Shown: one piece after another, positions 22,180 to 53,279 of the stretch
How positions within the stretch are numbered: position 1 is the first letter of the stretch
Layout of the letters: each line of letters begins with the position of its first letter
Source of the DNA: a virus
Direction: 5' to 3' (one strand)
Virus record (IMG/VR): IMGVR_UViG_3300042389_001478
Coordinates: 32,001-96,000 of that record
DNA: 64,000 bases
Program-made: the position numbers and the translations under genes
The notes under the pieces: model-generated
The model's input: only the letters and a program-made list of their open reading frames with translations
The model's database searches: none
Told to the model about the DNA's origin: nothing

Positions 22180-22200
22180 AGATAAACACTGGAGTTAATT

Positions 22201-31284: not shown

Positions 31285-31605
31285 ATGGATAATGATATGT
31301 ATAATCCAGACAGACTACAATTTTATATGAAAAGAAGAATTCAAACCACAATGATTGGCGCCTTGGCTCGCATGGAGCGTCATTTTGGATTTCTGTGGGG
31401 ACAGAACAAAGAGGGCGAATTGACTCCAGAAGAAGAAAACTTTGCTGATATCTGGGATTTTACCAGAAATGAAATTCTAAACCATGGAAATAAACAAATG
31501 AGAGAAGTGGCTGATGACTTTTATGAATATGGTGGTTTATTTAAAAACAAATACCATTACAACTTTAGAGTAGTTCAAGATAATCAAAAAAGGAAGGATA
31601 ATTAA
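31285..31605 (+). CDS. Hypothetical tail-region protein
   Basis: 106-aa ORF with RBS GAGG. Motif IQTTMIGALA..E..FGFLW. Confidence 0.55.
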   Translation: MDNDMYNPDRLQFYMKRRIQTTMIGALARMERHFGFLWGQNKEGELTPEEENFADIWDFTRNEILNHGNKQMREVADDFYEYGGLFKNKYHYNFRVVQDNQKRKDN

Positions 31606-35500: not shown

Positions 35501-38500
35501 TGGAGTAACCAAGGAAAAGAAACAGACTAATATAAATGAAACTGCTGCACAAGCTCTTCTCGAACAAAATGCAGGTAAATCTCCTGTTATTAGAAGAATA
35601 TTAAGTAAACCAAAAGCTGGTAGAGATTTTGCACAAATACTTAAAAAACAAGGAGTGACTATACCACCATTTCCAAAATTTGTGGGATCTGGAATGGCTA
35701 ACGCGGTTTTTGATATCGGAAATAAGAAAATGTTAAAAGTTTCTCTCACGGGCTTTGGCGATAATATGATGGCAGGAAATTTCTTTGGAGAGAATGTTGC
35801 TGAAAAAATGGGTATGACAGGTAATTATCAATTACCGATGGGTGTTCCTGGAGTAGCTGGATATTCATCTCATATTGATGCGGGAGTCTTGTCGTCTGCT
35901 ATTCAAGACAAAGCTGTTATGAAAATAAAAGGAAGAAGTAAAAATAAAGATGCTAACGAGCTAATCAAGCGATTGCGTAAACAAGAAGGACTTACAGGGA
36001 TTGATCTTCATAACGACAATATAGGATATAGATATAATCCCAAAACTAAAAAACAAGAACCAGCAATTATAGATGGTTTAGTAGTTCATGATGATAAATT
36101 ACCTCCTGGATTTGATTTTTCGAATCGTTTTAAAATTGGTGGAGAAGTACAGAGATTCCCTATTGGTGGAGAAGTTAGAAGAACCAAAAAAGAACGATAC
36201 AAAAAAATATCAGTAGCAGATGCAGAAAAGCTATCAGCTTCTCAGATTATAACCGGCCTTACTACAGGACAATCCGCTCCAGCTAGAGTAGGGGGTATGG
36301 ATGTTGTAACTATGAGAAAGATTCTCGGCCAACGCAATAGAACACCAGATGATCAACGCAAGAGAGATGAAATTCTAAATGCTTATACTAGAAGAATAAA
36401 TGGAGAAGTAGATCAACGTCTTGGAGTTACTAAGCAGAGACAAACAGCAGGATTACTATTTGGTATTGCTGGTTTGTACGGGTCTCCATTTGCCCCAACC
36501 GATATGGTTGTTGGAGATAAAGGAGAACTTACAAAACCCACAACCGTTCAGGTAATGGGTGGTGTTCCTCGTAAAAAATTAATGGATAGAGCTAATCTAA
36601 GTATTAATGACCTAGACATTTATGGTAAAGATTTTAAAAAGTCTGTTAAAAAAGGAGCTAAAAGATTATTAGTATCAGATATTCTTAGCCAACTAGGTTT
36701 AGGCAAAGCTCTTTATGCTGACTTTGATCGAACATTAGTGTTTGGTGCTGATGATCTTCCAGATATCCAGTCTTTTAATGACAAGAGAAAAGTGGGCAGG
36801 CAATTATTATCAAAAAAAGCTAGACTGAGCGTTCTTGGTCAAAAATTAAGAGATTTATTAGTAGCTAAGCCACAGCTCACACCATCTGTAAAAATATTAA
36901 CAGCAAGACCACGCTCTACACTTGGTCTTTTACAAGCTTTTCTTAGACGACAAAATCTTAATATACCTTCTTCTCAATTTACTGGGGTCGGTGGTAATAA
37001 TTTAAACGAAGCAGCAATAGCAAAATTAAAAGCTGCAGAATTACCTTCTGGATCAGTTTTAGTTGATGATAATGCAAAAAATATAAGAGCAGCAGAGCTA
37101 AAATCTAAAGCACTAAAAGCTCAAGGCGAAGCTGGTATTACAACATTTAGATATAAGAGCGCTAGGAGCCCACTAGATAAGCCGGGCGAAGATACTGCTG
37201 CTGGTCTTGCGTTCCAAGAATCATTAAGAGGACTTCTTTCAGAAAAAAGAGCAGTGGCCGCATTTGCTGAAACAGGAGGGAAGAGCATAGATTTCCCGCT
37301 AGGATTAGGAAGACGAGCAGCATTATTCGGACTAAAACCAAATATACCCACAGATGCTAAAAGAACATTAACTGGTCCATCAACAGCAAAAGAGAATATT
37401 ACTAATTATTTGAAAGCTAGATCATATTCTGCTGGCGGAGATATTCAAAAGTTTCCACAAGGAGGAACACCATCGCCGGGTGGACATTCCTCAAATATTG
37501 TACCAGCATTAGTTAGCACTGGAGAAGCTTACTTTCCACCAGAAGAAGCAAAAAATATAGGCTTAGACAAATTAAGAAAAATGAATCAAGCAGATCGTAA
37601 TGGCATGAAATCCTTTGCTCGGGGTGGTGTTAGTGTTTTCAGAGGTCCGGGATCAGGAACTAGTGATAGCATAGGACCAATAGGTTTGCCAGTAGGAAGC
37701 TTTATCGTTCGAGCAGCTGCAACAAAAGCTTTGGGTCTTAGTTCGGGTGGATCTGTTGGTAATGTACAAAAATTTGCCGCAGGAGGAGCTGCTCAAAGAT
37801 TATTTGTTGGAGGATTATTAAATCCACCACCAGCAGCTAGGCCAGATCTTGGTGGTATGAATGATTCTGAAGCTCGAAGAGTTGTTGGAGTAGTTAATAG
37901 CGTTAATCAGCAACTAGGACAATTAGCAGGAGTATTAGAAGAGCTTGGTGTTGCATCAGGAGATACTGCAAGGTTAATGCAAAGAGGAAGTCAGGCTACT
38001 TATGCTCAAGCTATTCAAGCGACAGAAGCTGATATTAGACGAGCCAGAATAGCAGGAGCATCAGCTCAACAAATAGCAGCTGCAGAAAGTGTGCTACGGG
38101 ATATTAGACAACAAGCTGATAGAGATATCAGAGCAAGAAGAGCATCTGTAGATACTCCGGGCGGAGCTAGAGCTTCCTTGGGTAGTTTAGGTGGACAAGA
38201 TTTACAGAGAATAGATTCTAGAGCCGATCAGCTACGTCAACAAATGATGGAAACAGAAAGAAATCGACTACAGAACCAAACTGTAACTCGCGGAGGAAGA
38301 ACAACAGCAAGATATTCTAATGAACAAGTCGAAGAAAGACTACAAAGACGAGCAGGAAGATTTAATAGACAATCCTACGAACAAGCAACTACTCAAGTTA
38401 CCGGCGGACGAGTCGATCTTGGTGCTGTTGGTTTAACTGGAGATGATGCTCAAAGATATATCCAACAAAGTATGAGAGACCGTAATACTTTAGCTCAGAT

Positions 38501-41500
38501 GGATAGAGCATATATACCACGACGAGCCGCACAGATTAGACAACAATTAGAAGCAGAGCGTGGTGTCGGAGCAACAGCAAGAGAAAGAGCGGCATTAGCA
38601 CGACAAGCATTACGCATGGCTGAGCAAGAGGCAAGAGACAGAGCCAATACTGCACGAGCCGCTGCCAGAGCCGCTGGAGCAGCTGGCCCCGGAGGAGGCC
38701 CAGAAAGCGGTATGGCTAGAAGCATGGGCATGGCCTTTGGTCTACAGATGGTAGGCTCCCTACTTGCACAACAGATTAATCCAGAATCTAGCTCTTCAAA
38801 TGCTCAGATATCTGCTGGTTTACAAGGTGGAACAAACATGCTGGCTACTGGCACCATGATTGGTAGTGGTGTGATGGAAATGTTCCCAGCAATGACACGA
38901 TTACTAGGTCCGATAACGATTTTAACAACAGTCGCACTAGCTGCTGGTCAAGCTTTAATTGATGCTCGAAATGCCGCCATAGAATTTGAGAAAAAATTAG
39001 CTGACAAAAGAGTTCAAGATGCAATGGAGAGAGTTGGTCAAGGCTTTGATAAACTAAGTAAAAATATCAAAGATATTAAAATTCAAGATGATATTACTAA
39101 CAATTTAATTGAAGCTAGTAGAAATGTTAGAAAATCAGTAGAAGCAGATAAAACAACAGCCAAGGCTTTTTGGGCTAATATTACTGATGTTTTTACCTCC
39201 AACACATCATCAAACTTAGCTGAGGCTGCGCAAAATGTATATAACTCCAAGCCAGCTGCTGGCAGAACAGACGCTGATAGAAATGCCTTAGCTGCTGTCA
39301 CAATAAACACCCAAGCTGCTGCAGCTAGCAGGAGCAAGATTTTAGAAAAAGAGGGGGTGTCAGCGTATCTTAGTACTACTAGCATGGGACAATTTTTAAG
39401 TGGAGCTGGCTCACAATCATCTTCTAGAGCTGAAGAAAGAAGATCATCGCTCTCTCTGGGTATGATACCGGAAACAGCCAGAGAAGACTCTAAAAAATAT
39501 GTTGAAGTCGCACAAAGTATGCAAAGAATTATTGAAGATAAATTAAGAAGTGGCTTGAGTGTTAGAGAATTATTAACAGCACCAAAACATGAATTTGAAC
39601 AAATTGCTAGAACAATGGCCATGGCAGACCAAGCCACCCATGCTAATATATTAGCAATCCAACAAGACACTAATCTAACCACAGCAGAAAAAGAAGCTAA
39701 AATCAAAAATATTGCTACGCTTTATGCTGAAGACAAGATTCGCAAATCTGCTAAGTCCGTGGACACGGAAAAAGCGAGTAAAAACTTTGAGAAGAATATT
39801 AATAATATGAGCCGTAGTTTGGAAAGAATGTTCCAAAATATGGATCAAGCTATTGAGAGAACAAGCTTTAGTTTAAGACAAATGTCTCAAGATATGGATC
39901 TCATATCAGCATCTCTTGGTGGACAAGCTAAAACTGGTGATACATCTCTTAAGTCCATGAATATTTTACAAAATCCAAGAGCATATGGTGGACTAGAAAC
40001 CAATGCTGCTAGGGATCAAGCTTCTTCCTTCTTTACTGGGGAACGTAATTTAGTTAAGGGACTATTATCAGTTGGAGATAATTTAGAAACTAGCATAATG
40101 TCTAGTATTAATAAAACTCTTACTGATAATCCAGCAGCTAGCAATGAGCAAATTGGTATCAATATTGAAAAACAAGTTACTAAACAAATTGCTAAACTAC
40201 AACTGCCTCCTGATGTTGGGAACAAACTTGGAGAACAAGTTAAGACCGCGTTGGACGAAATGAGAAAACGCGGAGATGAGAATCTAAATTTTGATGATTT
40301 AATGGAAAAAATCCCAGGATTAAGCAAGGTTCTGGAGAGCGGCAAAAGAGCACAAGAATCTGCACTTAAAGCACTAGAACATTGGCAGAGTTCACTAAAT
40401 TCGTATTCAGAAAAAATTAATCAATTAATAGATCTACAAATCGATACCAATGAAAGACTACGAAGATCAAGTGAATTGGTGATTCGTGGCAATATGGAAG
40501 TATCTCGCGCCCTTGGTAAAGATGTTAGTGTTTCATCTGTTAGATCAGCAAGAAATGTTGGCATAGCTCAACAAACTGGTGGCTTAACGGATGCTGATGC
40601 TATAGCCAAAAACATAATGTCATTAGAAGGCCAACGACGATCACTAGAATCATCGGCTAATTCTGCTGGTAATAGAGGATTAGCTGGGGCTAATGATTTT
40701 GTTAAATTTAAGAGCGGACTATTAGACACTAATGTTGCATTAAGAGAAAATATTGCAGCATTAAAATCTTTAGCAGAAAATGGCGATGTTGCTTCAGCAG
40801 CATTAGGAAAAATACAAGAAGCCCAACAGAAACAAGCTAGCAAAGTTGGATTCATTGAAAAGCTAGTAACTAGCACACCAGAAGAAGTTAATTCTTTAGA
40901 ACGTGCTATGGCTAGATTACAAAATAATATAAATGGTCAACTAAATACTATCAACAACAGTGTTGGTGCACAAAAGGCATATAATGATGCTATAGCGCAA
41001 GGAGCCACAAATGCAGAGGCCATGAGCGCAGCACAAGTTGCTTTTGCTGGCGAAAGAAAAGAAACACTAGGCGCTCTAAATGATTTATTGCCATTTTTAA
41101 GTAATAATCAACAGGGCAATAATATTAAAGCTAATGTACTAGAGAGTATGGCTAGAGAGTCTGGTGTTGGTATTAATCCAATGATGCAAGAGGTGATTAA
41201 TTCTTTAAGAAATCCACAGGCCGACCCTCAAACTCAAGCTGCTATGCAGCAATATCAACAGGCAATTAGTGAACAAGCTAGAGCTAATACTTTACTAGCA
41301 CAACTTAATAGTACTTTGGCTAATGATATTGCTACCAAATCAGCAGCAGCATTGAGCCAAGCTTTAACTGGCGCCTCGATTAAATTTCAGAGCAGTCAAT
41401 TAGACGATATTGCTAAGAATGTTAGATCTATTTCATTAAGAGGTGGTGATCAGCCAGTACCAGCAGCTGGAAAAGCCAATGGTGGCATGATTTATGCTGC

Positions 41501-44500
41501 CGCTGGTACAATGGTTAATTTCCAGCCCAAAGGAACCGACACTGTACCAGCAATGCTTACTCCCGGCGAATTCGTGGTCAACAGAGCTGCTACATCTCGT
41601 AATCTTCCATTATTGCAAAGCATTAATAGTGGTGGCTATAGTAAGGGCGGCAGCGTTAATTATTATTCTTCTGGTGGATATGTTAGTAGCGTATTTAAGA
41701 GTGAGTATTTAGACTCCAAGAACTTAGAGAATAGCGAAAAGCAATATATTGATCCAGAAGATAAAATAATAAAAGATATTATTAGTGGAGACGATAAACC
41801 ATTTATGATTAGGTCTGGATGGAAAAATTTCACTAGACTACAATCACCAGCTAACCAATATCACAGTGCTCAATTTAAAAAGACTTATGTTGGTAGAGTC
41901 GGAGGTTATTTTGGGTTTGGTCTTGATGAAACAAACGATAAAATTCCATTTGAGACCAGTGGTAAATTAGTACCTGGGTCTGCTCCGATCATTGATATTA
42001 ACTCCATAGATGGTGAATATGTTTATAAAAACACACCACCTCCTAATTTATGGCCAGCTGGTAATAGAGAGCTAGGATACTTATTATCAGATAGAAAATT
42101 TAATACTAAAAATATTGCTAAGAATGATTTGTCTAAATATAGAGATATTATCAATGGGCTTATTAGTGTTGTTCCTCCTGGTAGAGTTTGGGGTACAGAT
42201 CCATCAAGCTTTGAATTTAGTTCTCCAGATGATCTTTCCGGCGGCCAGAGCGGCTTTCCATATAATCCTAATTTAAGCAGCGCAAAACCGGTAGGCTTGA
42301 TTTTATCTAGAGGAGCTACTGATATAGGACAGCAAGCCACAGAAAGCACAGATGGAATTCAGAAAATCTTTAATAACAGCAGAGCATTTACCGGACAATC
42401 AGAAGAAGCTTCAGATAGAGCTGGAAATACAACTAGAATATATGGAGATATACAAGGAACGGTCTCTGCTGGGAAACTAACCAACGCAGCAAAACTTGCT
42501 CAAAGAGGTTTTATTAACGACGTTCCAACAGATAATGACACATTTAAATGGATTACTGAAACCAAAAAAATTAGCGAACTAAGAGACACTCAAAAAGAAA
42601 ATCTATCTCTACTTAAAAATACCACCACAGATATTTTTGGTAATAAAATTAATTGGCTTAAAAACACTGAAAAAAATAATAAACTTATTTCTTTACAACA
42701 AAAACTACAAAAAATTTATGAGGGTGGATCATTAATAGAAGATCTTGATGTTTCAGAAAGAGAGTTGATAGATAATACTCAGCTAAGACTAGATGATGCA
42801 TCCGGTAAGTTTTCATTGTTATCTAAACAATTAGAACCCCAATTAGCTAAAAGAGTAGCAGAGCTATCGTCTAGACCAATAGATCAACAGCTTCCAAAAG
42901 ATAAAGAAAATGCTAGAATTGCAACACTAACAAGAATAGGTGGAGCAGCAGGCTGGGCAGACGGAGATCCATTCCCGATCAACTTTAGTGAAAACGGACT
43001 AACCAAACCAACAGTCTCATTTCCATGGATAGCTAATATTGAACCAGAATTTTTCTTACAAAATATTAAAGAACAACAAGAGCAACAAGCTAAAGACCGA
43101 GCATCTGGTAAAGACTATGGGTTTAATATTAGCTCACTAGGATTACAACCGTATGCTGCTAAATTACCGGCACCACTAGACAAAGTAAGCTTCAATTATA
43201 AGGCTGCTTATACCAAATATAGTGGTAGACTATTTGATTTAAGACAAAAAGAACTAGATAATACCAGACCATTAAATGACGCTTTTATTATTGACCCTAA
43301 GCACGATGATGCTCTCAATATATTTAAAAATGCTAATTTCCCAGACAAATCCTTCTTTACAGGATTTCCCGGACCATACCAACCACAAGATTTAGCCAAG
43401 AGAATAAGCGTTAAAGATCCTCAGTCCATTCTAGACTACATGCAAGCTTTACGCAATAATGATCCCAATGCCGATGCTTTAGCTGGAAAAATTAATGGGG
43501 TATCTTTAGCTTTGGGACCAGCCCTGCTCAAGGTTATGAATGATAAGCCATTATATTTACCTGACGACTTATATTATGGTATTGATAATACTTTTCAAAA
43601 TCTTGATATTAGTCCATTTGTAGTAGCATCAGCAAAAGATGCTGCCGGGCAACTTGGTCGTTTAGCCAAAGAAAAAAGCTCCCAGATCAATACCCCAGGA
43701 TCAAAAACTCAAAGTATAAGCGAAGCTGATCTTGGTCCAACAGTGCAAAGAATAGCACAAGCATCTTTAGGCATTTTTGGACGTAGACCAGGAATACCAT
43801 CCGGATATCTTTATAGTCAATTTGGAAGAGCATTATCTAATATTAGTGATCCAATCAAAGCTAAGAATACGGCTTCTGGTATCAGTGGAGTTTTTAGTAA
43901 TTTAGTCAAACAAATTCATGGCATGGCTCCCAGAAATTCAAGAGAATTTGCAGCACTAAGAGATTCCAATATTTTAGCAACAGGCGCCTCTGCTGTTTTT
44001 AACAAACTAGCTTCTGGTAGTACTAATTATATTAAATCATTTTTAGGTGGTGGATCTTCTATAGAAAATCTCTTTAGGTCATTAGGTTCTGGATCTTTCT
44101 TTAATGAGATGGGTAGTCAACAGTTTAGTGAAGATTTTACTAAACAGCTTGGGGCTGATCTTAAGGGAAGCAAATTAGCTAAAATTGGAGCTGATGGCTC
44201 TATCGATTTAACAGATATGAATGAGCAGGATGTTCCTAAGAATTACCAAGGATTAGTTGATCTTGCTATTAATCCTTATCATGAATTTGGAAATAGATCA
44301 GTTCGTCAGGGAATTTTCCAAAAATTAATGACAGACATTCCTAATTTTAGAGCTAATCATAATGTTACAGATCCAAAAACTGGCACTATTTTAGAAAAAC
44401 GACAAACCCAACTACCATTATTTGGGCCTGCTGCTCTTAAGATGATAATGACTAATTTGAATAATTTATCACAATGGTATGGTGGAAATGGTGCTTGGGC

Positions 44501-47500
44501 TGGTCAAGACTATCTTAATGAGAACGACCCTGCTACTACTCCAAATGAAAGAGCAGAATTCTTAGCATCTAATTTCGATGGTGCTTTATATACTACAGCA
44601 ACAGAAGCCCACAGACAACTTGGCGGATTAGCAAACTTTGGAGATATTCCTAATAGAGAATGGCTTATGGCTAGAGGTCAGGCAAAGATGCCCGATATGA
44701 AACCAGTAGTTAAACTTGCTACTGGTGGTATGGTTTATGCGTCTAATGGACAGTATGTTAATTTCCAACCAAGAGGAACTGATACTGTTCCTGCAATGTT
44801 AACGCCAGGAGAGTTCGTTGTTAATCGAAGTGCTACTCAACAAAATCTTCCGCTACTAAGAGCAATTAATAATGGAGCTGATGCTTATAGTATGGGCGGT
44901 GTAGTTTACGCTGCTGGAGGATTTGATCCTTCTCGAATGGCCCAAGGAGCATATCCGTCACAAAGTACTAGTCCTAAGCCATCAATGTGGAGTAGAATGT
45001 TTGGTGCTAGAAATCCTGGAGCTTTTAGACCACGCGGTATGTTTCCAACTTTTGGTGGTGCCGTCGGACATATGGAAAATGGGCTACACAAAGCTTTTGT
45101 TAGAACATCTGGATGGGCTGGTAGGCAGGTCGGAGATGTGGGGAGAGCATTTGGTAACATTGGACATGCTCCGATCAGACCAACTGCTATCCTTAATCAA
45201 TTAACCCAATGGCAGGCTGCGCAACAAGGGGCAATGTTTCCTGCCAGCACAAGTGGTGCTGCTTACCAGAGAATGCAGCAAAATGTACTTAAACAGCTGG
45301 CACAGTACAGTTCGGCTGCAACAAATTATAATGCTAGCAATACCCTATTAGCCAGAGCAGGAAGAGGAGCAACTAGTTTAGCCACTAAGGCCGTTGGAGG
45401 TACAGCAGCTTTCAACTCTGGAATTAATATATTGACTGAAGGATCAAGCGCTCTATATGGTTTTGGTAATGCTGCTTTAGGAGGACGTAATACATATGTA
45501 GATAGTAGACGAGAACAAGCTGCTCAAACCAATAATACTATTTTAGGAGGAGCAGCTACAGGATTTATGTCTCCAATTACCACTATGGCCCAGATGGGTT
45601 TTACTGTTGCTGAACTTAATGAAACTAGGAGAAGAGCTAGTAAAGGAGAAAGTTTAAATAGTGAAGGACGAAAGATATCTGTATCAAACATTGCTAATAG
45701 ACAATATTCTGGAGATGAAAGACATTTATCTGGATTAACAGCAGTAGAAGCTACTTATATTAGACAGATCATAAATTTAGAAAAAGCTTTAGCCAAAGAA
45801 AAAGTTGGGACTAAACGGTACGACCAGCTACAACAAAATTTAAATGATGCAAAATCTAGAAATGTTACAGAAAAAACTCGTGGTATGCTATGGGGTACCA
45901 CAAAAACTACTAGCAGAAAGGCCGGTCTTAGTAGTGGTGACGACGTATTAGACAAAGCTATTGATCAACATAGAGAATATGAGGTTAGATTAGAAGCACA
46001 AAGAGTTGCTCAGGCAGCTGCAGAAAAAGCAGAAGAAGCTAGACTAAAAGCTCAACAACAACAAGCTGAAGCTCAAAATAGAACAAGAGCTGCTGTTACG
46101 GTAGTGTCTAATGCTGGACAAGCAGCTTATAATTTTGGGGTCTCTATGTTTAATAAATTCAAAGAAGATAGAAAGAATGCTATAAATGCTGATAGATCTA
46201 AGAGAACAGCAGCAGCATCTCAGTATTTAGATAAGCCCGCAGTGCCAGATCTAATTAAAGATAGTCAAACTTTCAGAGACGAAAGACAAGCTGCTATCGA
46301 TGAAGTTCGTCGTTTGGATGGGGTTTATCAACAAGAGTCACAGCTAAATAAAAATAGAGGAGATAGCGAAGCAGAACTTAAACGATTAAAGGATTCATAC
46401 GACAAAGAACGAGAAGCCGCACTAGCAGCTGTTGCTAAAGTTGATAGTAAAATTATTGACAGAAATAAAGAAGCAGAAAAACTCAGCCCAGACGAAAGAC
46501 AAGCAGCATGGAAGTCATACAATGATAATCAAGCTAAAACAGCCAAAGATGAAGCATTAGCTCAAGCAAGATACCAAAGTAGAGTTGCTAAAACACAACT
46601 TAAAAAACAGGCCGACGGTCAATTGGCCATAGCAGAAATTACTAGAGTACCCAGACCAACAAAAGATATGAACCCTGAATCATTCTTTAGATGGTCAGAA
46701 AATGCTCGTAAGACATTAAATAGAAAATTCAAGCTGAGCGGAAATGATGAAAAAGACATGGCTATTTTAAGTGCTGCTGGATTATCTCCAGAAATAGCTA
46801 AAGAAGTTATCCAGCCTATCTCTAAAGAGAATAGCTCACTATTATTAGAAATGATGTCAACTAGCGGTAAATATAGTAAACAAGAACTAGGACTATTACA
46901 GCTTAGTGGAGATCAAATAGAACAGTTAACTAGAGCTAGCTCTGGTATGGGTGGCTCAGCCACCGCACAAATGACACTAGACGAAAGAAACAAAGTTCTG
47001 AAAAAACAAAGGGGCTTGGCAGTTAAAACTCAAAAGCAATTGAGTAGAATTGAAAAACAAATTGAGGCTGCTGAAAGACTTGGCCCAGAAGGAAGAATAC
47101 GTCGTCAATCCGCTATTCAACAACAACTATTAAGACAAGGATTAGTATCAGCATCTCAAGATGGTCCTGCTAATCAAGCTAGACTAGAACAATTAGGAAT
47201 GAATAAGGAAAGAGTTGGTTTCATATTCCAACAGCAAGGAAATCAACAAGGTGCTCCAGCAAATGGTATGAGTAACGGAGGAGTGGTTTATGCTGCTGGC
47301 GGAACATTGATTCCATATTCTCCAAGAGGAACCGACACTGTTCCTGCTATGCTAACGCCCGGAGAATTTGTTGTTAATGCTAAGGCCACAAGTCAAAATC
47401 TTCCATTGTTACAAAGTATTAATAAAAGTAGTGGAGGGGTAATTTATCGAGCGGAGGGTGGCGGAAGTGACGCTTTCTCTAACAGACAGCCGACCTCATC

Positions 47501-50500
47501 TGCAGAAAAATCAGGATCGATTAGAGCAACAGAATTAAATACTAGACTACAACAACAAATAGCTAATAATACAAAAAATACAGCCGATACTGTTCCAACT
47601 ATAGCAAAAATTACTAGTGAAACAGCAAATAAGCAAATACCGACATTATCTAATAAAACATCATCATTAGAACAAAATAATGCTAAGGCTTTTTCCAACA
47701 TAAATACAAAAGCTACAGATATTAATAAAATAACTTCAACTATTCCACAATTTGACAAAACAGCAAATGAAAAATTAGATGAATTATTAAGAAGAACTGA
47801 AGGGTTGCCAGAGACAGTTGCACAAATTGTTACTTTGATTATTGGGGATATACAACAGAGACAGCCTGGAGGTAATTTTGCAGGATTTGGGTTGAATCAA
47901 GGCCCTAATGCAATACAAGCAATAAATGATGCTATTAGAAATAGGTTTGATAATATTCTTAATGCTGCCGCTTTACAGATGGGCAGGGGCTTTAGTAGTG
48001 GAGGTATGGTCTATGCTTCAAATGGAATGATGATTCCTTATGAACCTAGAGGTACTGATACTGTTCCGGCGATGCTAACTCCGGGTGAGTTTGTGGTGAA
48101 CAGAGTTGCTACCCAAGCCAATTTACCTTTATTACAAGCTATTAATAAGAGTAAAGGTGGGAATATCAAAAAGCTTGCTGAGGGTGGAGTAGTTTATGCT
48201 GCTACTGGCGGAACAATGCCAACTAAACCAGACGGTTCTGCTGATACTAATTTTGATGCTCGCAAAGCTCAACGAAAAGCATCTTTAGAGAGACAGATTC
48301 GAACACAGGAAGAAAAAGAATTTAAGAAATTAGGTATCTTATACAATGATACCACAGACAAAGAAGATATCATACAAGCTCTTAAAAAACAAACTCAGCC
48401 TTATCCTTATCCTTTAAATATTGATTATTATCTAAGACAATTTAGTAGGGATAAAGCATTTGACATAGACCTAAAAAGATTTCCAAGAATTAGCGAAGCG
48501 GCAAAATCAATCTTAGCCAAACAAGAACAACCAAAAGCTAATCCTTTTGATATGGGTCAGCAACCAGCAGCAACTCCACAATCACTCTCAAGAGGTGGAG
48601 TAGTTTATGCTTCTGGTGGCGGAGAGATGACAAAAATTCCAGAGCCACCAATAGCTATGCCATTCGGATTTGCTCCACAAAAGGGATTTGCTGTTCCTTT
48701 GGATAAAACTAAGGCCATACAAGCACATCAACAATCAGAAAAATACCCTGATCCTTTTACTCCAGAAGCTGATAGGGCCTGGAGACAATTTGACTTGAGT
48801 CCAGTAGAAAGTATGGCGGATGATGCTCATGAATTTTTACAAGAAAAATTAGGAGGAAACAAACAAATTCCCCTTAATGGTCCACCCATGCCATTTGGTG
48901 TCGGTCCTAGAGCTAGGCATATGGATAACACTGTTGCTGGACAACTTCAAGGATTGTATTATTCGTTAATACCTGATAATACCAAAGGTGGTCAGGGTTT
49001 AGAAAATTATTTAGACCAATATAAAAATCATTTTGCTCCAAACGCACCATATGGGGCTCAGCCGATCTTACCAAATAAAGATTCGTTGATGCCTCAAATG
49101 AAAGCTAAGGGTGGAGTAGTTTATGCTCAAGAAGGATTTGATCCATCAAGACCATTAAATCCTATGATGAATCGTCAAGGAAAGGGTTCAGCTTCCACAT
49201 TAACCTCATCTCCAATTAGTAATTTTAATAATGAGAAGTTAGCTGAAGAAGGTAAAGCTTTTATGTACGGAGCTGCTAAGTCCGTACTTCCAGGTTTAGC
49301 TGGTTTGGGTGCTGGACTTTTAGGACTACCCACCACGGGTCCTGGTGGATTTGCTATTGGCTTAGGAGCAGGGACCGCAGTATATCAAGCTCAAGAAAAT
49401 TATTTGAATGCTTTTGCTCCAGAAACAAATAGACAGATGAAAGATATCACCGAGGAGCACTGGCAGGCTTCATTATTGGGATCTATAGCTAGTGGTTTTG
49501 GTGTTGATAAGGCGGGTCGTAAGCTACTCTCTCCTTTTATGAAAAATACTCTCAGAATGCCCGCCACACTTCCTAATAATAATGCTTCTGTAAGACCAGA
49601 TATTAAGAGTGCTAGTCAAGAAGCTATGGAGGAATTTTCTTTAAGAAGTAGACCAGCAGCTAGCGCCCCATTAGATGTACCAAAAGCTGATAAAGCTTTA
49701 CCGCTTCTTCGTAGTCTAGAAGAAAAGGGTGTTATAAAAACTACTCAATCATCATCAACATCTAAATTTAACAGTGATAACAGACGAGACCTATATCAGA
49801 TTGATCAAATTTTATATCACGGCACAGGACATACTATAGATGATATAGATCCATCCAAAGGCGGAGGTATATTAGGCGGTGGTTTCTATACTGGATTTGA
49901 AGGTCACGAAGGAATCGCTGCAAGATTTGCAGCAATGGGTAAAGCAAATAAGCATGTGTATCCAGTAAGAGTCAGTGGTGGTATAGGTGATTTTCCTGAG
50001 GCTACAGAAACTCTTGGCGGTAACTCTAAAATTTTATCAGTCATAGAAAAATTATTTACTGAACAGAACTTATCTAGACAAACTCGTCAGTTCTCAGGCA
50101 AATGGGGGAAAACAGGTCCTATTTATGACAACGTAGATTTAAATCTGAAAGACATGACATTCAAAGACGTTGTTGATTTGCTTAAGAATAGATATTCTGA
50201 AACCATAAAGAAAACTCTAGAGCAAGAAAATGGTATTTCTTTATCAAAAATATCGCCTCAAGAAATTGCTACAAGAGCAGATAAATTAGGTGAAGAACAG
50301 GTAAGACAACTATTGGTTAAAGCTGGTATACCAGGAGCCAAAGATACAACAGGAAAATTATCGGGTACTGGCGAACCTATGGTCTCCATATATGATCAAA
50401 GCAGGCTAAGCAAAGAAGGAAAACCTTTTGTTCCAAATAGTTTGAAACCCCAGATGAAAGCCAATGGTGGTGTAATTTATGCTCAAGATGGTATGAGAAT

Positions 50501-53279
50501 CCCGTTTAATTTAAATGATATTGCTGATAAAAATCCAGCAAAAGTGGGATACTCAACATCAGCAGAAGAACGATATATGGAAAGATGGAAGAAAACACAT
50601 ACCGACTTACTAGCAGACCCGTCAGAAGGTCCTGGTATGTTGGGTGCTCCGTTTCATGAAAGATTTTCAGCTGGCTTAAATATGCTTGCTGATATTGGTT
50701 CAGCAAAAATGGCTGGAGCAAAAGCTACAGGAGCAAGAGGTCAAAAATTTGCTAGTGTGCCAAGATCAGGCAGATCCATGAGGAAACCACCGACCTCTAT
50801 AGTGAAACCAAGTGCTCCTTCTGTAGGAGATCTTAAAGCTCTGCAATATAGTCAAGAAAATATACCAAATTTATTAGGAGATGGAGAGAGACCATTATTT
50901 AGTAAAGATTTTCCAAAAACCGTTAAACCAAAAGATATTGAAGCAAAATTAGCCCAAGATAGAACTGAAATAGAAAGTATAGCAAAATTACTCTCTGAAA
51001 GACTAGGAAGACCGGTTGATCCAGTGGAAGCTAAGGATATGTTAGTTAAAAGAATGACTGATATGATGATTGAAGCTAAGTCTGGCGAAGATAATATGAA
51101 AGGTAGAACTGTTGATAGTAAAACATTTATAATATCTTCTTCACAAGGAAGAACTAATCGAGCTTTTGTAGAAGCGTCTCCTAAAGCATCATTATTACGC
51201 AAAATAGCCTCAAAACTATCTTTTGGTAAAATAGATAGATTATCTCCAAAACAACAATTAGATAGAGACGAACTATTTGCCATACAACGAATACAGAGTT
51301 ATATGTATGATCAGTTACATCCTGAAAGAATGGGTGGTTTAATTATTCCTTCTCGTAAACTATCTTTTGCTGAAGCTTATGATGAAATAGATTCATTACA
51401 ACCAGGAAAATATGGTTATTTCAAAGGGCTAACTGAACCCGGAGGCAAAGCATTAAAAAATCTTCTATCCAGCGGAAGAATAGATAAAGAAACATTGATG
51501 ACTCAACGTAAACAAGTATCAGATAAGTTAATATCTGAAGGTAAATTAGATCCACAAGATCTACCAGAAGCAAGAATGGCGGAAGACCCCACAAAATCTC
51601 AAATGATAATGCAGAGAGTAAACAGAAATTCTGATATGATAATTAGATATCAAGGAAATGATGTCAGATTAAATCCAGATATTTTAAAATTAGCAGATAA
51701 AGGTGTCTACCAGTCACCCGTAACCACAAATGATCCACAACAACAAATATACCCTACATCTCCATTAGATTTTTATCAGAAATTTATGGCTCCACAGAAT
51801 AAATCATCTGGTGGTGTAATTTATGCTTCAACAGGAACATTAGTAAATTATCAGCCTCGTGGCACCGACACAGTACCCGCAATGCTTACGCCCGGTGAGT
51901 TTGTTGTAAACAGAGCCTCTACTCAAAAACACCTTCCACTATTACAATCTATTAATAGTGGGAACTATGAAAATGGCGGAATAGTATCATACTATCGAAG
52001 AGGTGGTCGTATTACTGCAGCAGAACTAGCATCAAATAGAAGAGAATATTTAGATCGCAAAAAAGCAGAGAAAAAGCAAAGAGATGATGATAAAAAAGCT
52101 AGAGAAGATAATTTTGCAGCAGCACGACAACAACAGATTGAAGACCGTAGAGCTAGATCTACAAGTGGCATCTCTGTGCAAACCAGGGGCGGGTCCTATG
52201 CTCGATCTGCAATGAGTTCTAGTCAAGCACAACCAAACCAACCACAACAAACAGCACAGAGCACCATAGCACAAGCTATTATCAATGTGGCTCAAGCAGC
52301 TATAAATATTGCAAATGCTACTACTAGTTCTAGCTCCTCTAATAATAATCAAACCGGCACTCCGTCTTATATGACTAGTAGTATTAATGGACCAAGAACT
52401 CAACGAACTCAGGATTTCTTTGAAGCTAGAAGAATAAATAGAAACAGCAGAGAACAAGAAGAGAATGACAGAACATTATATAGAAGAAGAAATCGCAGGC
52501 CATCAGACACAACAGCTTATAGTAATGCTTTAGCTAGTAGAAATACTCCCGTGGCTGCTAATAATCAAAATTCCCCAGCACAAAATAGCATATTCGGTAA
52601 CTTGCTACAAGCCATACAAAGCATGTTTGGATCGGCCCAAACAGCAACGAGAGGTGCACAGAATCAACAAACTGGAACACCAAGATATCTAACAAGCTCT
52701 ATCAATACTCCCGGCGTTCAGCGAACACAAGAATTCTTTGAGATGAGAAGAATTAACCAAGAAGCTCAACAGGCTGAAAGAGACAGAAGAAATCAAAGAG
52801 CTGCAGTGGCACAAGCGGCCAATAGTCCAAATGTTCCATCTGGCCAAAATCCAGCACAAAATAATAACATATGGACAGTATTAAATAATAATGCTCTCCA
52901 ATTTAGTAATGCTTTAAATACAGCTACCACCGCTTTAAACACAGCCTCCGCCGCGATACAGCAATATAATCAACAATTGGCTGGTGGTGTATCTAATAAA
53001 GGAAACCCTGATAAAACCAATCTTGATGGAATTAGCCTATTTACAAGCACATTCCAATCATTTATTGATCAATTGAAAAATATTAATCCGGTAATAAATA
53101 TGAGAGGAAATCATACAGTAACAGTAAATTTCGGTTCTGGTGCAGATGTTTTTGCAAGAATGGAAGGAAGAGTTAAGGAGTTTGTTATTGATCAAATTAA
53201 TGCCGGATTAAATAATGTAAATACTACACTAAGAGATAGCACCGAAGGCTCTATTGATAATGTTCGAAATTTAGCTTAA
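32580..53279 (+). CDS. 6,899-aa tape measure protein carrying multiple enzymatic cargo domains (polyvalent TMP)
   Basis: TP901/PhageMin_Tail-like core (FIEYDQQLTRISQVTG...TRESAETIATGLRTIFTRI, about 33450-34300). Second long helical region with hydrophobic segments. Repeated GTDTVPAMLTPGEFVVN motifs. Canonical position after the tube and chaperone genes. RBS GAGGA. Confidence 0.92.
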   Translation: MAKGFNLTAEINLRGPSNIRSVVADIKRQVGSVSVDVSPTLNRASVRTIANDIRRQIGNLSAEINVRANAGSIRNLSRDIRQRLGTLTADVQVRADASSIRRSVANIRSQFRNISTNVAVSASPSSIRQASSAIRRQLGNINANVRVNVSAGSVRQAAANIRRQLGSINTTVNVGINAASLRGIGAYTANLTRLNATLAQTTITATNAAGAIATLTAAMGAAGRVNLGQINVNLGNAGNAARNTANNIQLAGNEIENFGRQAGLAIRRFAAFSVVTGVVFGITNAFKNGVSAFIEYDQQLTRISQVTGDAKESLGKINSTISELSTSLGVSSKELAATSVTLAQAGLTARDTETALKALALSALAPSFDDMNQTVEGSIALMRQFGISSKELEGSLGSINAVAAKFAVEASDIITAIQRTGGVFAAAGKGVSEGTNALNEFIAVFTSIRATTRESAETIATGLRTIFTRIQRADTIEALKEFGVTLTDLEGKFVGPYIAVQRLSEGLSKLDPRDLSFSRIVEELGGFRQIGKVLPLIQQFATAQDALRVAQQGQGSLSADAAKGQMALAIQIAKVREEFLALIRSVGNTDSFQNMVKVGLDLASALIKVADAAKGLIPLVGLFAAFRGAQAITQFAGGFGRGFRGAPTQRASEGGPIRHFASGGYVPGFGNGDTVSAKLTPGEFVMSKPAVRSIGVGNLSRMNKGDRASKFDKGGPVTVSALLTRSGGPSIRNAINTTNLEPDDTVSINIVPKQVPLNQTDFLNIWLRGNSSAKKGTGKFKNYAGINVSQENRDRLKNLAGKNTKQQQEIKRGYGAGISEQVSMLQSAEGRWGLAYEEFLINKLRANWTKASSKNNYPVDLVQKLTNNSIKRIGEVKFRTTPTEDIDLISKLLRYRIERGSINRYFRENEEIPKDLDKNIGSLDYFWAGNYKKQFYKFIEERQKIQAPGFVRAAAGGQIQRFPRGGNVQKLANVGVTKEKKQTNINETAAQALLEQNAGKSPVIRRILSKPKAGRDFAQILKKQGVTIPPFPKFVGSGMANAVFDIGNKKMLKVSLTGFGDNMMAGNFFGENVAEKMGMTGNYQLPMGVPGVAGYSSHIDAGVLSSAIQDKAVMKIKGRSKNKDANELIKRLRKQEGLTGIDLHNDNIGYRYNPKTKKQEPAIIDGLVVHDDKLPPGFDFSNRFKIGGEVQRFPIGGEVRRTKKERYKKISVADAEKLSASQIITGLTTGQSAPARVGGMDVVTMRKILGQRNRTPDDQRKRDEILNAYTRRINGEVDQRLGVTKQRQTAGLLFGIAGLYGSPFAPTDMVVGDKGELTKPTTVQVMGGVPRKKLMDRANLSINDLDIYGKDFKKSVKKGAKRLLVSDILSQLGLGKALYADFDRTLVFGADDLPDIQSFNDKRKVGRQLLSKKARLSVLGQKLRDLLVAKPQLTPSVKILTARPRSTLGLLQAFLRRQNLNIPSSQFTGVGGNNLNEAAIAKLKAAELPSGSVLVDDNAKNIRAAELKSKALKAQGEAGITTFRYKSARSPLDKPGEDTAAGLAFQESLRGLLSEKRAVAAFAETGGKSIDFPLGLGRRAALFGLKPNIPTDAKRTLTGPSTAKENITNYLKARSYSAGGDIQKFPQGGTPSPGGHSSNIVPALVSTGEAYFPPEEAKNIGLDKLRKMNQADRNGMKSFARGGVSVFRGPGSGTSDSIGPIGLPVGSFIVRAAATKALGLSSGGSVGNVQKFAAGGAAQRLFVGGLLNPPPAARPDLGGMNDSEARRVVGVVNSVNQQLGQLAGVLEELGVASGDTARLMQRGSQATYAQAIQATEADIRRARIAGASAQQIAAAESVLRDIRQQADRDIRARRASVDTPGGARASLGSLGGQDLQRIDSRADQLRQQMMETERNRLQNQTVTRGGRTTARYSNEQVEERLQRRAGRFNRQSYEQATTQVTGGRVDLGAVGLTGDDAQRYIQQSMRDRNTLAQMDRAYIPRRAAQIRQQLEAERGVGATARERAALARQALRMAEQEARDRANTARAAARAAGAAGPGGGPESGMARSMGMAFGLQMVGSLLAQQINPESSSSNAQISAGLQGGTNMLATGTMIGSGVMEMFPAMTRLLGPITILTTVALAAGQALIDARNAAIEFEKKLADKRVQDAMERVGQGFDKLSKNIKDIKIQDDITNNLIEASRNVRKSVEADKTTAKAFWANITDVFTSNTSSNLAEAAQNVYNSKPAAGRTDADRNALAAVTINTQAAAASRSKILEKEGVSAYLSTTSMGQFLSGAGSQSSSRAEERRSSLSLGMIPETAREDSKKYVEVAQSMQRIIEDKLRSGLSVRELLTAPKHEFEQIARTMAMADQATHANILAIQQDTNLTTAEKEAKIKNIATLYAEDKIRKSAKSVDTEKASKNFEKNINNMSRSLERMFQNMDQAIERTSFSLRQMSQDMDLISASLGGQAKTGDTSLKSMNILQNPRAYGGLETNAARDQASSFFTGERNLVKGLLSVGDNLETSIMSSINKTLTDNPAASNEQIGINIEKQVTKQIAKLQLPPDVGNKLGEQVKTALDEMRKRGDENLNFDDLMEKIPGLSKVLESGKRAQESALKALEHWQSSLNSYSEKINQLIDLQIDTNERLRRSSELVIRGNMEVSRALGKDVSVSSVRSARNVGIAQQTGGLTDADAIAKNIMSLEGQRRSLESSANSAGNRGLAGANDFVKFKSGLLDTNVALRENIAALKSLAENGDVASAALGKIQEAQQKQASKVGFIEKLVTSTPEEVNSLERAMARLQNNINGQLNTINNSVGAQKAYNDAIAQGATNAEAMSAAQVAFAGERKETLGALNDLLPFLSNNQQGNNIKANVLESMARESGVGINPMMQEVINSLRNPQADPQTQAAMQQYQQAISEQARANTLLAQLNSTLANDIATKSAAALSQALTGASIKFQSSQLDDIAKNVRSISLRGGDQPVPAAGKANGGMIYAAAGTMVNFQPKGTDTVPAMLTPGEFVVNRAATSRNLPLLQSINSGGYSKGGSVNYYSSGGYVSSVFKSEYLDSKNLENSEKQYIDPEDKIIKDIISGDDKPFMIRSGWKNFTRLQSPANQYHSAQFKKTYVGRVGGYFGFGLDETNDKIPFETSGKLVPGSAPIIDINSIDGEYVYKNTPPPNLWPAGNRELGYLLSDRKFNTKNIAKNDLSKYRDIINGLISVVPPGRVWGTDPSSFEFSSPDDLSGGQSGFPYNPNLSSAKPVGLILSRGATDIGQQATESTDGIQKIFNNSRAFTGQSEEASDRAGNTTRIYGDIQGTVSAGKLTNAAKLAQRGFINDVPTDNDTFKWITETKKISELRDTQKENLSLLKNTTTDIFGNKINWLKNTEKNNKLISLQQKLQKIYEGGSLIEDLDVSERELIDNTQLRLDDASGKFSLLSKQLEPQLAKRVAELSSRPIDQQLPKDKENARIATLTRIGGAAGWADGDPFPINFSENGLTKPTVSFPWIANIEPEFFLQNIKEQQEQQAKDRASGKDYGFNISSLGLQPYAAKLPAPLDKVSFNYKAAYTKYSGRLFDLRQKELDNTRPLNDAFIIDPKHDDALNIFKNANFPDKSFFTGFPGPYQPQDLAKRISVKDPQSILDYMQALRNNDPNADALAGKINGVSLALGPALLKVMNDKPLYLPDDLYYGIDNTFQNLDISPFVVASAKDAAGQLGRLAKEKSSQINTPGSKTQSISEADLGPTVQRIAQASLGIFGRRPGIPSGYLYSQFGRALSNISDPIKAKNTASGISGVFSNLVKQIHGMAPRNSREFAALRDSNILATGASAVFNKLASGSTNYIKSFLGGGSSIENLFRSLGSGSFFNEMGSQQFSEDFTKQLGADLKGSKLAKIGADGSIDLTDMNEQDVPKNYQGLVDLAINPYHEFGNRSVRQGIFQKLMTDIPNFRANHNVTDPKTGTILEKRQTQLPLFGPAALKMIMTNLNNLSQWYGGNGAWAGQDYLNENDPATTPNERAEFLASNFDGALYTTATEAHRQLGGLANFGDIPNREWLMARGQAKMPDMKPVVKLATGGMVYASNGQYVNFQPRGTDTVPAMLTPGEFVVNRSATQQNLPLLRAINNGADAYSMGGVVYAAGGFDPSRMAQGAYPSQSTSPKPSMWSRMFGARNPGAFRPRGMFPTFGGAVGHMENGLHKAFVRTSGWAGRQVGDVGRAFGNIGHAPIRPTAILNQLTQWQAAQQGAMFPASTSGAAYQRMQQNVLKQLAQYSSAATNYNASNTLLARAGRGATSLATKAVGGTAAFNSGINILTEGSSALYGFGNAALGGRNTYVDSRREQAAQTNNTILGGAATGFMSPITTMAQMGFTVAELNETRRRASKGESLNSEGRKISVSNIANRQYSGDERHLSGLTAVEATYIRQIINLEKALAKEKVGTKRYDQLQQNLNDAKSRNVTEKTRGMLWGTTKTTSRKAGLSSGDDVLDKAIDQHREYEVRLEAQRVAQAAAEKAEEARLKAQQQQAEAQNRTRAAVTVVSNAGQAAYNFGVSMFNKFKEDRKNAINADRSKRTAAASQYLDKPAVPDLIKDSQTFRDERQAAIDEVRRLDGVYQQESQLNKNRGDSEAELKRLKDSYDKEREAALAAVAKVDSKIIDRNKEAEKLSPDERQAAWKSYNDNQAKTAKDEALAQARYQSRVAKTQLKKQADGQLAIAEITRVPRPTKDMNPESFFRWSENARKTLNRKFKLSGNDEKDMAILSAAGLSPEIAKEVIQPISKENSSLLLEMMSTSGKYSKQELGLLQLSGDQIEQLTRASSGMGGSATAQMTLDERNKVLKKQRGLAVKTQKQLSRIEKQIEAAERLGPEGRIRRQSAIQQQLLRQGLVSASQDGPANQARLEQLGMNKERVGFIFQQQGNQQGAPANGMSNGGVVYAAGGTLIPYSPRGTDTVPAMLTPGEFVVNAKATSQNLPLLQSINKSSGGVIYRAEGGGSDAFSNRQPTSSAEKSGSIRATELNTRLQQQIANNTKNTADTVPTIAKITSETANKQIPTLSNKTSSLEQNNAKAFSNINTKATDINKITSTIPQFDKTANEKLDELLRRTEGLPETVAQIVTLIIGDIQQRQPGGNFAGFGLNQGPNAIQAINDAIRNRFDNILNAAALQMGRGFSSGGMVYASNGMMIPYEPRGTDTVPAMLTPGEFVVNRVATQANLPLLQAINKSKGGNIKKLAEGGVVYAATGGTMPTKPDGSADTNFDARKAQRKASLERQIRTQEEKEFKKLGILYNDTTDKEDIIQALKKQTQPYPYPLNIDYYLRQFSRDKAFDIDLKRFPRISEAAKSILAKQEQPKANPFDMGQQPAATPQSLSRGGVVYASGGGEMTKIPEPPIAMPFGFAPQKGFAVPLDKTKAIQAHQQSEKYPDPFTPEADRAWRQFDLSPVESMADDAHEFLQEKLGGNKQIPLNGPPMPFGVGPRARHMDNTVAGQLQGLYYSLIPDNTKGGQGLENYLDQYKNHFAPNAPYGAQPILPNKDSLMPQMKAKGGVVYAQEGFDPSRPLNPMMNRQGKGSASTLTSSPISNFNNEKLAEEGKAFMYGAAKSVLPGLAGLGAGLLGLPTTGPGGFAIGLGAGTAVYQAQENYLNAFAPETNRQMKDITEEHWQASLLGSIASGFGVDKAGRKLLSPFMKNTLRMPATLPNNNASVRPDIKSASQEAMEEFSLRSRPAASAPLDVPKADKALPLLRSLEEKGVIKTTQSSSTSKFNSDNRRDLYQIDQILYHGTGHTIDDIDPSKGGGILGGGFYTGFEGHEGIAARFAAMGKANKHVYPVRVSGGIGDFPEATETLGGNSKILSVIEKLFTEQNLSRQTRQFSGKWGKTGPIYDNVDLNLKDMTFKDVVDLLKNRYSETIKKTLEQENGISLSKISPQEIATRADKLGEEQVRQLLVKAGIPGAKDTTGKLSGTGEPMVSIYDQSRLSKEGKPFVPNSLKPQMKANGGVIYAQDGMRIPFNLNDIADKNPAKVGYSTSAEERYMERWKKTHTDLLADPSEGPGMLGAPFHERFSAGLNMLADIGSAKMAGAKATGARGQKFASVPRSGRSMRKPPTSIVKPSAPSVGDLKALQYSQENIPNLLGDGERPLFSKDFPKTVKPKDIEAKLAQDRTEIESIAKLLSERLGRPVDPVEAKDMLVKRMTDMMIEAKSGEDNMKGRTVDSKTFIISSSQGRTNRAFVEASPKASLLRKIASKLSFGKIDRLSPKQQLDRDELFAIQRIQSYMYDQLHPERMGGLIIPSRKLSFAEAYDEIDSLQPGKYGYFKGLTEPGGKALKNLLSSGRIDKETLMTQRKQVSDKLISEGKLDPQDLPEARMAEDPTKSQMIMQRVNRNSDMIIRYQGNDVRLNPDILKLADKGVYQSPVTTNDPQQQIYPTSPLDFYQKFMAPQNKSSGGVIYASTGTLVNYQPRGTDTVPAMLTPGEFVVNRASTQKHLPLLQSINSGNYENGGIVSYYRRGGRITAAELASNRREYLDRKKAEKKQRDDDKKAREDNFAAARQQQIEDRRARSTSGISVQTRGGSYARSAMSSSQAQPNQPQQTAQSTIAQAIINVAQAAINIANATTSSSSSNNNQTGTPSYMTSSINGPRTQRTQDFFEARRINRNSREQEENDRTLYRRRNRRPSDTTAYSNALASRNTPVAANNQNSPAQNSIFGNLLQAIQSMFGSAQTATRGAQNQQTGTPRYLTSSINTPGVQRTQEFFEMRRINQEAQQAERDRRNQRAAVAQAANSPNVPSGQNPAQNNNIWTVLNNNALQFSNALNTATTALNTASAAIQQYNQQLAGGVSNKGNPDKTNLDGISLFTSTFQSFIDQLKNINPVINMRGNHTVTVNFGSGADVFARMEGRVKEFVIDQINAGLNNVNTTLRDSTEGSIDNVRNLA
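32637..33122 (+). repeat. Six 27-aa (81-nt) tandem repeats at the TMP N-terminus
   Basis: Consensus RxxxxxIRRQLGxIxxxVxVxxxxxS(I/V/L), repeated six times in exact register. Confidence 0.9.
35040..35420 (+). other. PD-(D/E)xK nuclease-like domain 1 within the TMP
   Basis: GLAYEEFL (E837)...YPVDL (D860)...IGEVKF (E875, K877). Confidence 0.6.
35670..36110 (+). other. Protein-kinase-like domain within the TMP
   Basis: VGSGMANAVF (Gly loop, G1036), MLKV (K1053), IQDKA hinge, DLHNDNIG (D1142, N1147), IIDG (D1165). Confidence 0.75.
36705..37110 (+). other. HAD-superfamily phosphatase domain within the TMP
   Basis: Motif I LYADFDRTL (D1381, D1383), motif II KILTAR (T1441), motif III Lys (AKLK), motif IV VLVDDN (D1496). 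Confidence 0.8.
37190..37425 (+). other. PD-(D/E)xK nuclease-like domain 2 within the TMP
   Basis: GLAFQESL (E1547)...SIDFP (D1571)...PTDAKRT (D1592, K1594). Confidence 0.55.
41532..51911 (+). repeat. Five exact protein-level copies of GTDTVPAMLTPGEFVVN within an extended ~55-aa repeat
   Basis: Copies start at 41532, 44775, 47328, 48051 and 51861. Each is preceded by GGxxYAxxG and followed by xxATxxNLPLLxxIN (variants in some copies). Degenerate copies at about 34560-34650, 37480-37535 and 37610-37715. Confidence 0.95.
49800..50400 (+). other. ADP-ribosyltransferase-like domain within the TMP
   Basis: LYHGT (H5747), LGGGFY (Y5770), IAARFA, HVYPVRV, then LLVKAGIPG...GEPMVSIYD (E5932). Confidence 0.7.

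Follow-up and report, generated by a model that had tools for sequence, protein, structure and literature searches.

How tape measure proteins (TMPs) are cut has been an open question since the 1970s. In phage lambda, the TMP gpH is cut in a glycine-rich region to give gpH* and gpHC, with both the exact site and the enzyme given as unknown in a 2025 structural paper (PMC12617516). In phage T5, the cut in pb2 falls after R1127, as mapped by mass spectrometry (PMC10038345), and a myophage study argues that TMP cleavage is general (PMC11972413). Here, we analysed a window of 64,000 nucleotides (bases 32001-96000) of the IMG/VR virus record IMGVR_UViG_3300042389_001478 (192,497 bp, rated complete by CheckV), an uncultured 192-kb phage whose tail "ruler" protein of 6,899 residues is encoded by one open reading frame (ORF) at window positions 32580-53279 on the plus strand. 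A unit of ~55-65 residues recurs along this protein, and the ends of the homology blocks that it shares with relatives fall at these units about three times as often as expected by chance.

A TMP can also carry a working enzyme, as in the case of the N-terminal virion RNA polymerase on the P23-45 TMP (PMC10770324, in which TMP processing is not mentioned). Such TMP-fused enzymes, together with the lysin domains in SPbeta YomI and TM4, resemble what is proposed here in that the ruler would carry a functional payload into the cell; they differ in having one payload per protein and no described repeated junction motif. The polyvalent proteins (Iyer et al. 2017, PMC5512222) are likewise giant virion-delivered polypeptides with many exchangeable modules and a proposed processing into units. 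In those proteins, however, an embedded zincin-like peptidase (MPTase) does the processing, whereas the present TMP contains no HExxH motif anywhere. In addition, no module of this TMP matches the families listed in PMC5512222, where tape measures are unmentioned. Polyvalent proteins carry several recognisable effector or enzyme domains, which this TMP does not, and membership in that class was rejected.

A repeated unit in a giant tape measure protein

The domain PF10145 (PhageMin_Tail, 'TP901 family') matches residues 320-512 of the 6,899-residue ORF with 88.4 bits, above the curated cut-off of 33.2, and was found again with 95.3 bits in a search of the whole record. The N-terminal part of the protein is also matched by nine PHROG TMP families. 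Judged from these family matches, the ORF is a TMP. The copies of the unit, located with a hidden Markov model (HMM) built from 236 copies, are distributed over the gene as follows:

32580-53279 (+): giant TMP ORF, 6,899 aa, a single open frame; PF10145 and nine PHROG TMP families
34539-34694 (+): unit 0a (aa 654-705), lambda-like diverged copy after a hydrophobic, Gly-rich stretch; unit HMM 33.7 bits, BLASTP match to lambda gpH
37434-37589 (+): unit 0b (aa 1619-1670), diverged copy of the GEAYF type; unit HMM 33.3 bits, GEAY-type orthologues in the relatives G001 and G003
37662-37709 (+): possible further remnant near unit 0b (aa ~1695-1720)
41481-41666 (+): unit 1 (aa 2968-3029), where the long helical tape region ends; exact core, HMM 70.8 bits
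44724-44915 (+): unit 2 (aa 4049-4112); exact core, HMM 72.9 bits
47277-47453 (+): unit 3 (aa 4900-4958); exact core, HMM 66.8 bits
48000-48203 (+): unit 4 (aa 5141-5208); exact core, HMM 66.6 bits
51810-51995 (+): unit 5 (aa 6411-6472), the final unit before the C-terminal part; exact core, HMM 72.5 bits

The 17-residue core, GTDTVPAMLTPGEFVVN, is present in exactly five copies in this ORF, starting at aa 2985, 4066, 4917, 5158 and 6428 (window positions 41532-41582, 44775-44825, 47328-47378, 48051-48101 and 51861-51911, respectively). The HMM recovers seven significant copies in the TMP, namely these five canonical ones and two diverged ones (aa 667-704 and 1633-1670, ~33 bits each), and finds no copy in any other frame of the window. 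The diverged copies 0a and 0b are older and differentiated, since both have diverged in sequence and each lies at a matching relative position in relatives.

Pairwise comparison of the five cores gave a nucleotide identity of 0.75-0.86 and a proportion of synonymous differences of 0.52-0.91, which is saturated, without a single amino-acid change. Over the 56-codon unit, the nonsynonymous divergence (dN) is ~0.25 and the synonymous divergence (dS) exceeds 1.2, while within the 17-residue core dN is 0. The five protein-identical, codon-diverged copies claimed in the preliminary description are therefore real, and the span given there, 41472-52010, runs from the first to the last full unit. Its view of an old duplication under strong purifying selection also holds, given the dN of 0, the synonymous saturation and the recurrence of the exact peptide at orthologous positions in relatives. 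A tandem or slippage repeat is ruled out by the same divergence at the DNA level and by the distance between neighbouring units (241-1270 aa). These distances show no regular, ruler-like spacing. As a side observation, GC-ending codons are enriched in the cores, with a GC content at third codon positions of 0.28-0.40 compared with 0.18-0.24 gene-wide in all five phages (this one, G001 and G003-G005).

The full unit is built of four elements. A GG-[VIM]-[VI]-Y-A mini-motif is followed ~10 residues further on by the invariant core; then come a short helix with LL..IN at its end and another GG mini-motif. When 150 diverse units were compared, P, A, G, E and one N did not vary. A regular-expression map of the TMP revealed 19 mini-motifs of this type, compared with 0.49 in shuffled sequence. 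Among relatives, 133 distinct mini-motifs share the context [Y/K/F/L/M]-[S/A]-x-G-G-[V/I/M]-[V/I]-Y-A-x-x-G, and the [aromatic/K]-[S/A]-x-GG part is common to these 133 instances and to T5, lambda and the mycobacteriophage Amelie. Some of the mini-motifs stand alone outside units:

35445-35492 (+): stand-alone double GG mini-motif (aa 956-971)
36138-36158 (+): stand-alone GG mini-motif (aa 1187-1193), with the start of homology blocks at aa 1179-1187
48594-48614 (+): stand-alone GGVVYA mini-motif (aa 5339)
49110-49130 (+): stand-alone GGVVYA mini-motif (aa 5511); block end at aa 5505
50466-50486 (+): stand-alone GGVIYA mini-motif (aa 5963); block end at aa 5976

Homology to lambda gpH and other tape measure proteins

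Unit 0a matches lambda gpH 754-777 by BLASTP (E = 4e-7), and the unit HMM detects gpH with an independent E-value of 1.5e-6 in a four-sequence search; the canonical copies are tied to lambda through the profile only. When all PDB sequences were searched with the unit profile, the TMP of the mycobacteriophage Douge (8zdo_S) was found with two copies (E = 1e-8) and lambda gpH (8iyk_H) at residues 733-789 (E = 0.067). On these sequence matches, the unit is homologous to lambda gpH aa 733-790 and is already known as a part of ordinary TMPs. Its elements stand in the same order in gpH (GG mini-motif, P-A...G-E-F-V core, helix, then another GG mini-motif). The setting is also the same: the segment comes after a hydrophobic, glycine-rich stretch and before the hub-binding C-terminal helix, and it lies within the cleaved gpHC. 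In contrast to the present TMP, gpH possesses one copy and no inserts, and its diverged core lacks the near-invariant Asn.

The Douge TMP gp16 (PDB 8ZDO), an ordinary TMP, contains clear unit homologues at residues 961-1036 and 1412-1460, while the HMM finds one copy in the Amelie TMP (860-943), ~65% along the protein. Compared with the giant TMP, both have only one or two copies with a more diverged core, and the unit is without a published role in Douge and other actinophage TMPs. In the 3,404-residue TMP of the Nodularia phage 2AV2 (vB_NpeS-2AV2), two copies with a near-identical core are present, with the unit at ~30% of the length, and PHROG TMP family 25241 carries the unit at positions 692-756 of 810. 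It had been proposed that a single copy of the motif is common near TMP C-termini. The unit is indeed common in ordinary TMPs, as lambda and PHROG 25241 illustrate, but its position varies, as seen in Amelie and 2AV2, and Douge and 2AV2 hold two copies each. In the TP901-1 TMP no copy was found by the unit HMM, although this TMP belongs to the same Pfam family.

Neither Pfam nor NCBIfam contains a family for the unit, as five scanned units gave nothing at E<=10. PF09718 (Tape_meas_lam_C) was considered as the family of the unit and rejected because in lambda it covers another segment, gpH 627-701; the five units also gave no match to it at this threshold. IMPDH gave the only matches when a single unit sequence was searched against the PDB, and these were judged to be due to chance.

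Units mark the junctions between exchanged segments

Compared with the closest relative, G001, the first 704 residues of the TMP are 85% identical, and this identity breaks off within the helix of unit 0a. At residue level, other blocks begin at the leading mini-motif of a unit or end after the trailing one. Homology blocks break at aa 1611-1634 (unit 0b), four of them end at aa 4113-4114 (unit 2), and blocks start at aa 4883-4900 (unit 3) and end at aa 5204-5214 (unit 4). A clear exception is the block break at aa 3243/3323. In all five full-length TMPs, 35-53% of the block ends, which are not independent of each other, lie within 30 residues of a mark, compared with 13-16% for random positions. 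The expectation that units coincide with module boundaries and swap points was thereby borne out, and the units act as junctions of the protein.

Homology blocks of relatives that start and stop at units could also be produced at the DNA level, if the repeats mainly provided shared DNA for cassette exchange between co-infecting relatives, a recombination anchor as the preliminary description had suggested. However, the DNA identity of the core among copies is 0.79-0.83, compared with 0.81-0.82 in simulated codon draws from each gene's own usage. Between phages it is no higher than within one phage (means of 0.79-0.82), and the longest shared DNA run is 14 nt. As independent codon draws would give copies just as much alike, the signal resides in the peptide, and a DNA recombination anchor is not supported. 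Furthermore, selection acts on the peptide (dN = 0), and breakpoints would be found at units just as well if no junctions other than in-frame ones at units survived selection. We therefore regard a DNA-level anchor as very improbable. Selection against DNA identity between copies, by which recombination would be avoided, was also evaluated (in the window, P was 0.02 with the 17-mer and 0.10 with the 13-mer; four relatives gave P = 0.2-0.7) and rejected as a general effect.

Distribution in environmental phages

The IMG/VR search gave more than 579 matching stretches, and 71 loci were kept, mostly on contigs of 50-240 kb. The exact 17-mer is present in 117 of the 236 units of these loci, and 50 loci contain at least two exact 13-mers. 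Four full-length relatives encode TMPs of 5,267-7,733 aa, each with five or six canonical and two diverged copies. In a profile search of 1.84 billion representative proteins, 26,326 matched at E<=1e-3 and 1,535 at E<=1e-30, the highest count being 11 units in proteins of about 7,800 aa. Matches with a length of 150-2,000 aa are TMPs and contain PF10145 or PF20155, and the unit is confined to TMPs. The unit is real, ancient and widespread, and a repeated junction unit is not described in the searched literature.

Structure of the unit and its possible partners

Fold prediction of the ~55-residue unit, which had been named as a check, did not reveal an autonomous fold. With 150 sequences, AlphaFold2 gave a mean predicted local distance difference test (pLDDT) score of 62 for the unit, only the short helix being near 80. 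For a unit-module-unit construct the mean pLDDT was 46; here a beta-hairpin is predicted at every mini-motif, and a helix follows every core. In these models, the unit behaves as a linear motif and not as a domain. The equivalent segment is unresolved in the cryo-electron microscopy maps of lambda and Douge, in which only residues 818-849 of gpH and only residues 1658-1699 of the Douge TMP are resolved. Judged from these two maps, the unit is disordered in the virion state.

TMPs are trimeric or hexameric in the tube, and the predicted beta-hairpin and helix could pair between chains, so that the units of three or six parallel TMP chains would be stapled together and keep register between inserts. 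Identical staples at many positions would nevertheless invite out-of-register pairing, and divergence between them would be expected instead. Since the equivalent segment is also unresolved in the symmetric lambda and Douge maps, an oligomer staple seems quite improbable.

The unit is a long, invariant, non-folding peptide which is identical in every copy and across unrelated hosts, and this argues for one common, phage-internal reader. One candidate is a partner in assembly: each unit may bind a single phage-encoded protein, either a tail assembly chaperone or the homopolymeric lumen of the tube, which would allow the tube to polymerise across non-helical inserts and would make any cleavage incidental. 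One sequence in all copies is what a single chaperone or a homopolymer would require of its ligand, and the lack of an autonomous fold is typical of peptides that fold on binding. A core that is near-identical across Nodularia and actinobacteria phages points in the same direction, to a phage-internal partner, and lambda gpG and gpGT are known to bind gpH. In contrast, the irregular spacing of the units (241-1270 aa) is not readily explained by docking, and the TP901-1 TMP, despite being of the same Pfam family, assembles with chaperones while lacking the unit. Moreover, chaperone genes are not confidently identified here, as the ORFs at 31285-31605 and 31607-32491 are without family match. 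Assembly docking as the main role of the unit is thus unlikely.

The disorder of the unit in the virion state would also suit a function after ejection, in which the units engage a universal host component, serve as ratchet points for membrane insertion or translocation, and help to thread the long chain out of the tube. In lambda as well as in unit 0a, a hydrophobic, glycine-rich stretch immediately precedes the unit; TMPs form the channel across the envelope, and for the HK97 TMP a periplasmic chaperone is required (cited in PMC12617516). However, most canonical units are not beside hydrophobic segments, and with its polar character the unit itself does not resemble a membrane segment. Nor is any host partner known, and conservation over hosts with different envelopes would demand a universal target. 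A post-ejection role therefore appears rather improbable.

Processing of the tape measure protein

The reading which we favour starts from lambda. The unit would descend from a segment which ordinary TMPs possess once, with the hydrophobic, glycine-rich stretch on one side and the C-terminal hub anchor on the other (gpH 733-790 in lambda). This segment has been multiplied in a large clade of uncultured phages, where the unit may now stand at every junction of the conserved tape backbone and the exchanged segments. It would act as protein and not as DNA, with one common partner reading all copies and so keeping one sequence. The likeliest event at the unit would be a proteolytic cut of the TMP just upstream of the GG mini-motif, as in the conversion of lambda gpH to gpH* and gpHC and in T5 pb2 after R1127. 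On this view, the giant TMP would be a polyprotein from which cutting within the tail yields tape pieces and payload pieces.

Processing is favoured because the cut region of lambda gpH and the mapped site of T5 pb2 both adjoin a mini-motif. In lambda, the ~14 kDa fragment corresponds by mass to a cut near aa 713-729, a short way upstream of FATGGF at 733. In T5, the cut after R1127 lies two residues before the only GG[MVI][MVI]Y of pb2 (GGMMY), and the probability of any such match in shuffled pb2 is 0.002. As proposed for the giant TMP, the T5 cut parts the tape (pb2*) from a C-terminal functional piece (pb2C) in a [basic/aromatic]-[A/S]-x-GG context. Unlike the giant TMP, pb2 shows no significant homology to the full unit and is cut at one site, and pb2C carries a muralytic motif. 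The processing signal suggested in the preliminary description thus finds indirect support in the lambda and T5 cut sites, and cutting of the present TMP may be inferred from them.

Two further observations were made on pb2. In aa 1128-1180, after the cut, the order of elements is as in the unit (GGMMY, GTEVVTPM, ATPND, PIILNIS), an alignment which is not significant (hhalign E = 0.11). The reported muralytic motif of T5 coincides with the position of the unit core in this same non-significant alignment.

Several points weigh against processing. In the phages of this clade, cleavage has never been observed. The link to T5 consists of a five-residue mini-motif, as the profile comparison with pb2C is not significant, and the lambda cut site is placed only within about 20-40 residues. 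The residue at position -3 of the putative cut varies (Y, K, F, L or M), unlike a simple protease specificity. Family scans revealed no recognisable protease in the neighbouring genes, and there is none in the TMP itself, which has no HExxH. In addition, the invariant core of 17 residues exceeds what most cleavage signals need, which suggests a larger binding interface, and no module of this protein matches a known enzyme family. Balancing both sides, we tentatively propose that the units are protein-level junctions read by one common partner, most likely in TMP processing; this reading is plausible, though it falls short of being probable. A broader version, in which the unit or its GG mini-motif is the determinant of TMP cut sites in lambda gpH, T5 pb2 and thousands more, and giant TMPs are cut in the tail into up to a dozen separately ejected pieces, is possible but doubtful.

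Content of the segments between units

A Pfam search of the TMP at E<=0.01 gave nothing beyond PF10145, and a per-module scan at E<=1 gave sub-threshold noise. Short motifs were noticed on the plus strand at window positions 35685-36026, 36714-36743 and 49815-49844, comprising a kinase glycine loop and catalytic loop, a HAD DxDxT, and YHGT as in H-Y-E ADP-ribosyltransferases (ARTs); there is no Pfam or PDB sequence match behind any of them. The 'YHGT' module matched neither the Pfam-validated ART of a relative (P0258) nor any PDB sequence. Kinase, phosphatase or ART identities of cargo segments in this TMP would rest on short motifs only and are unsupported. The units had been said to bracket cargo modules. 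In this TMP no module matches a Pfam or PDB sequence, whereas in a few relatives an ART (PF03496), SLT, DnaJ or SHD1 domain directly adjoins units. The exchanged segments may be payload.

The C-terminal end and neighbouring genes

The C-terminal part of the TMP contains the following conserved feature:

52989-53276 (+): conserved C-terminal ~96 aa of the TMP, sharing 53% identity with the final 98 aa of the G001 TMP

This segment is the probable hub-binding end, by analogy with lambda gpH 818-849 and Douge TMP 1658-1699, the sole portions of these TMPs that tail-tip structures resolve. The last unit is 461 aa from the C-terminus, compared with 145-181 aa in relatives and ~100 aa in lambda, because of an extra Q/N/S-rich low-complexity insert. 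Within this insert, an internal duplication of ~35-50 aa was observed at window positions 52356-52391 and 52674-52709 (+), corresponding to TMP aa ~6593 and ~6699.

In the family scans of window ORFs, the ORFs directly flanking the TMP gene have no match. The two directly upstream, 31285-31605 (106 aa) and 31607-32491 (294 aa), both (+), lie in different frames with a 1-nt gap between them. They are possible candidates for tail assembly chaperones, and a lambda-like frameshift overlap between them was not seen. Close to its end, the 294-aa ORF contains an Asp-rich G-R/N-x-[VI]-D repeat. PHROG tail-fibre and baseplate-like matches are located upstream of the TMP gene at 18784-26303. The same structural module contains a second giant ORF of 4,221 aa at 6103-18768 (+), whose sole family match is a He_PIG immunoglobulin-like domain at aa 1243-1337 and which is probably a fibre or adhesin. 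Two neighbouring paralogous ORFs at 2589-3473 and 3477-4394 (+), each with one Gly_rich_2 (PF21722) domain, lie downstream of a Laminin_G_3 protein (93-1694).

Implications for tape measure proteins

The unit lies beside the cut region of lambda gpH, and its mini-motif lies beside the only mapped site, that of T5, so that mutagenesis in lambda now has a concrete target. The unit has been multiplied in ~1,500 or more clusters of TMPs with several copies, in proteins of up to 7,800 aa, which suggests that many environmental phages employ the ruler as a modular carrier with standard joints. Such modular-carrier TMPs bear on what phages deliver alongside their DNA, and the joints may offer a natural design rule for putting payloads into tails.

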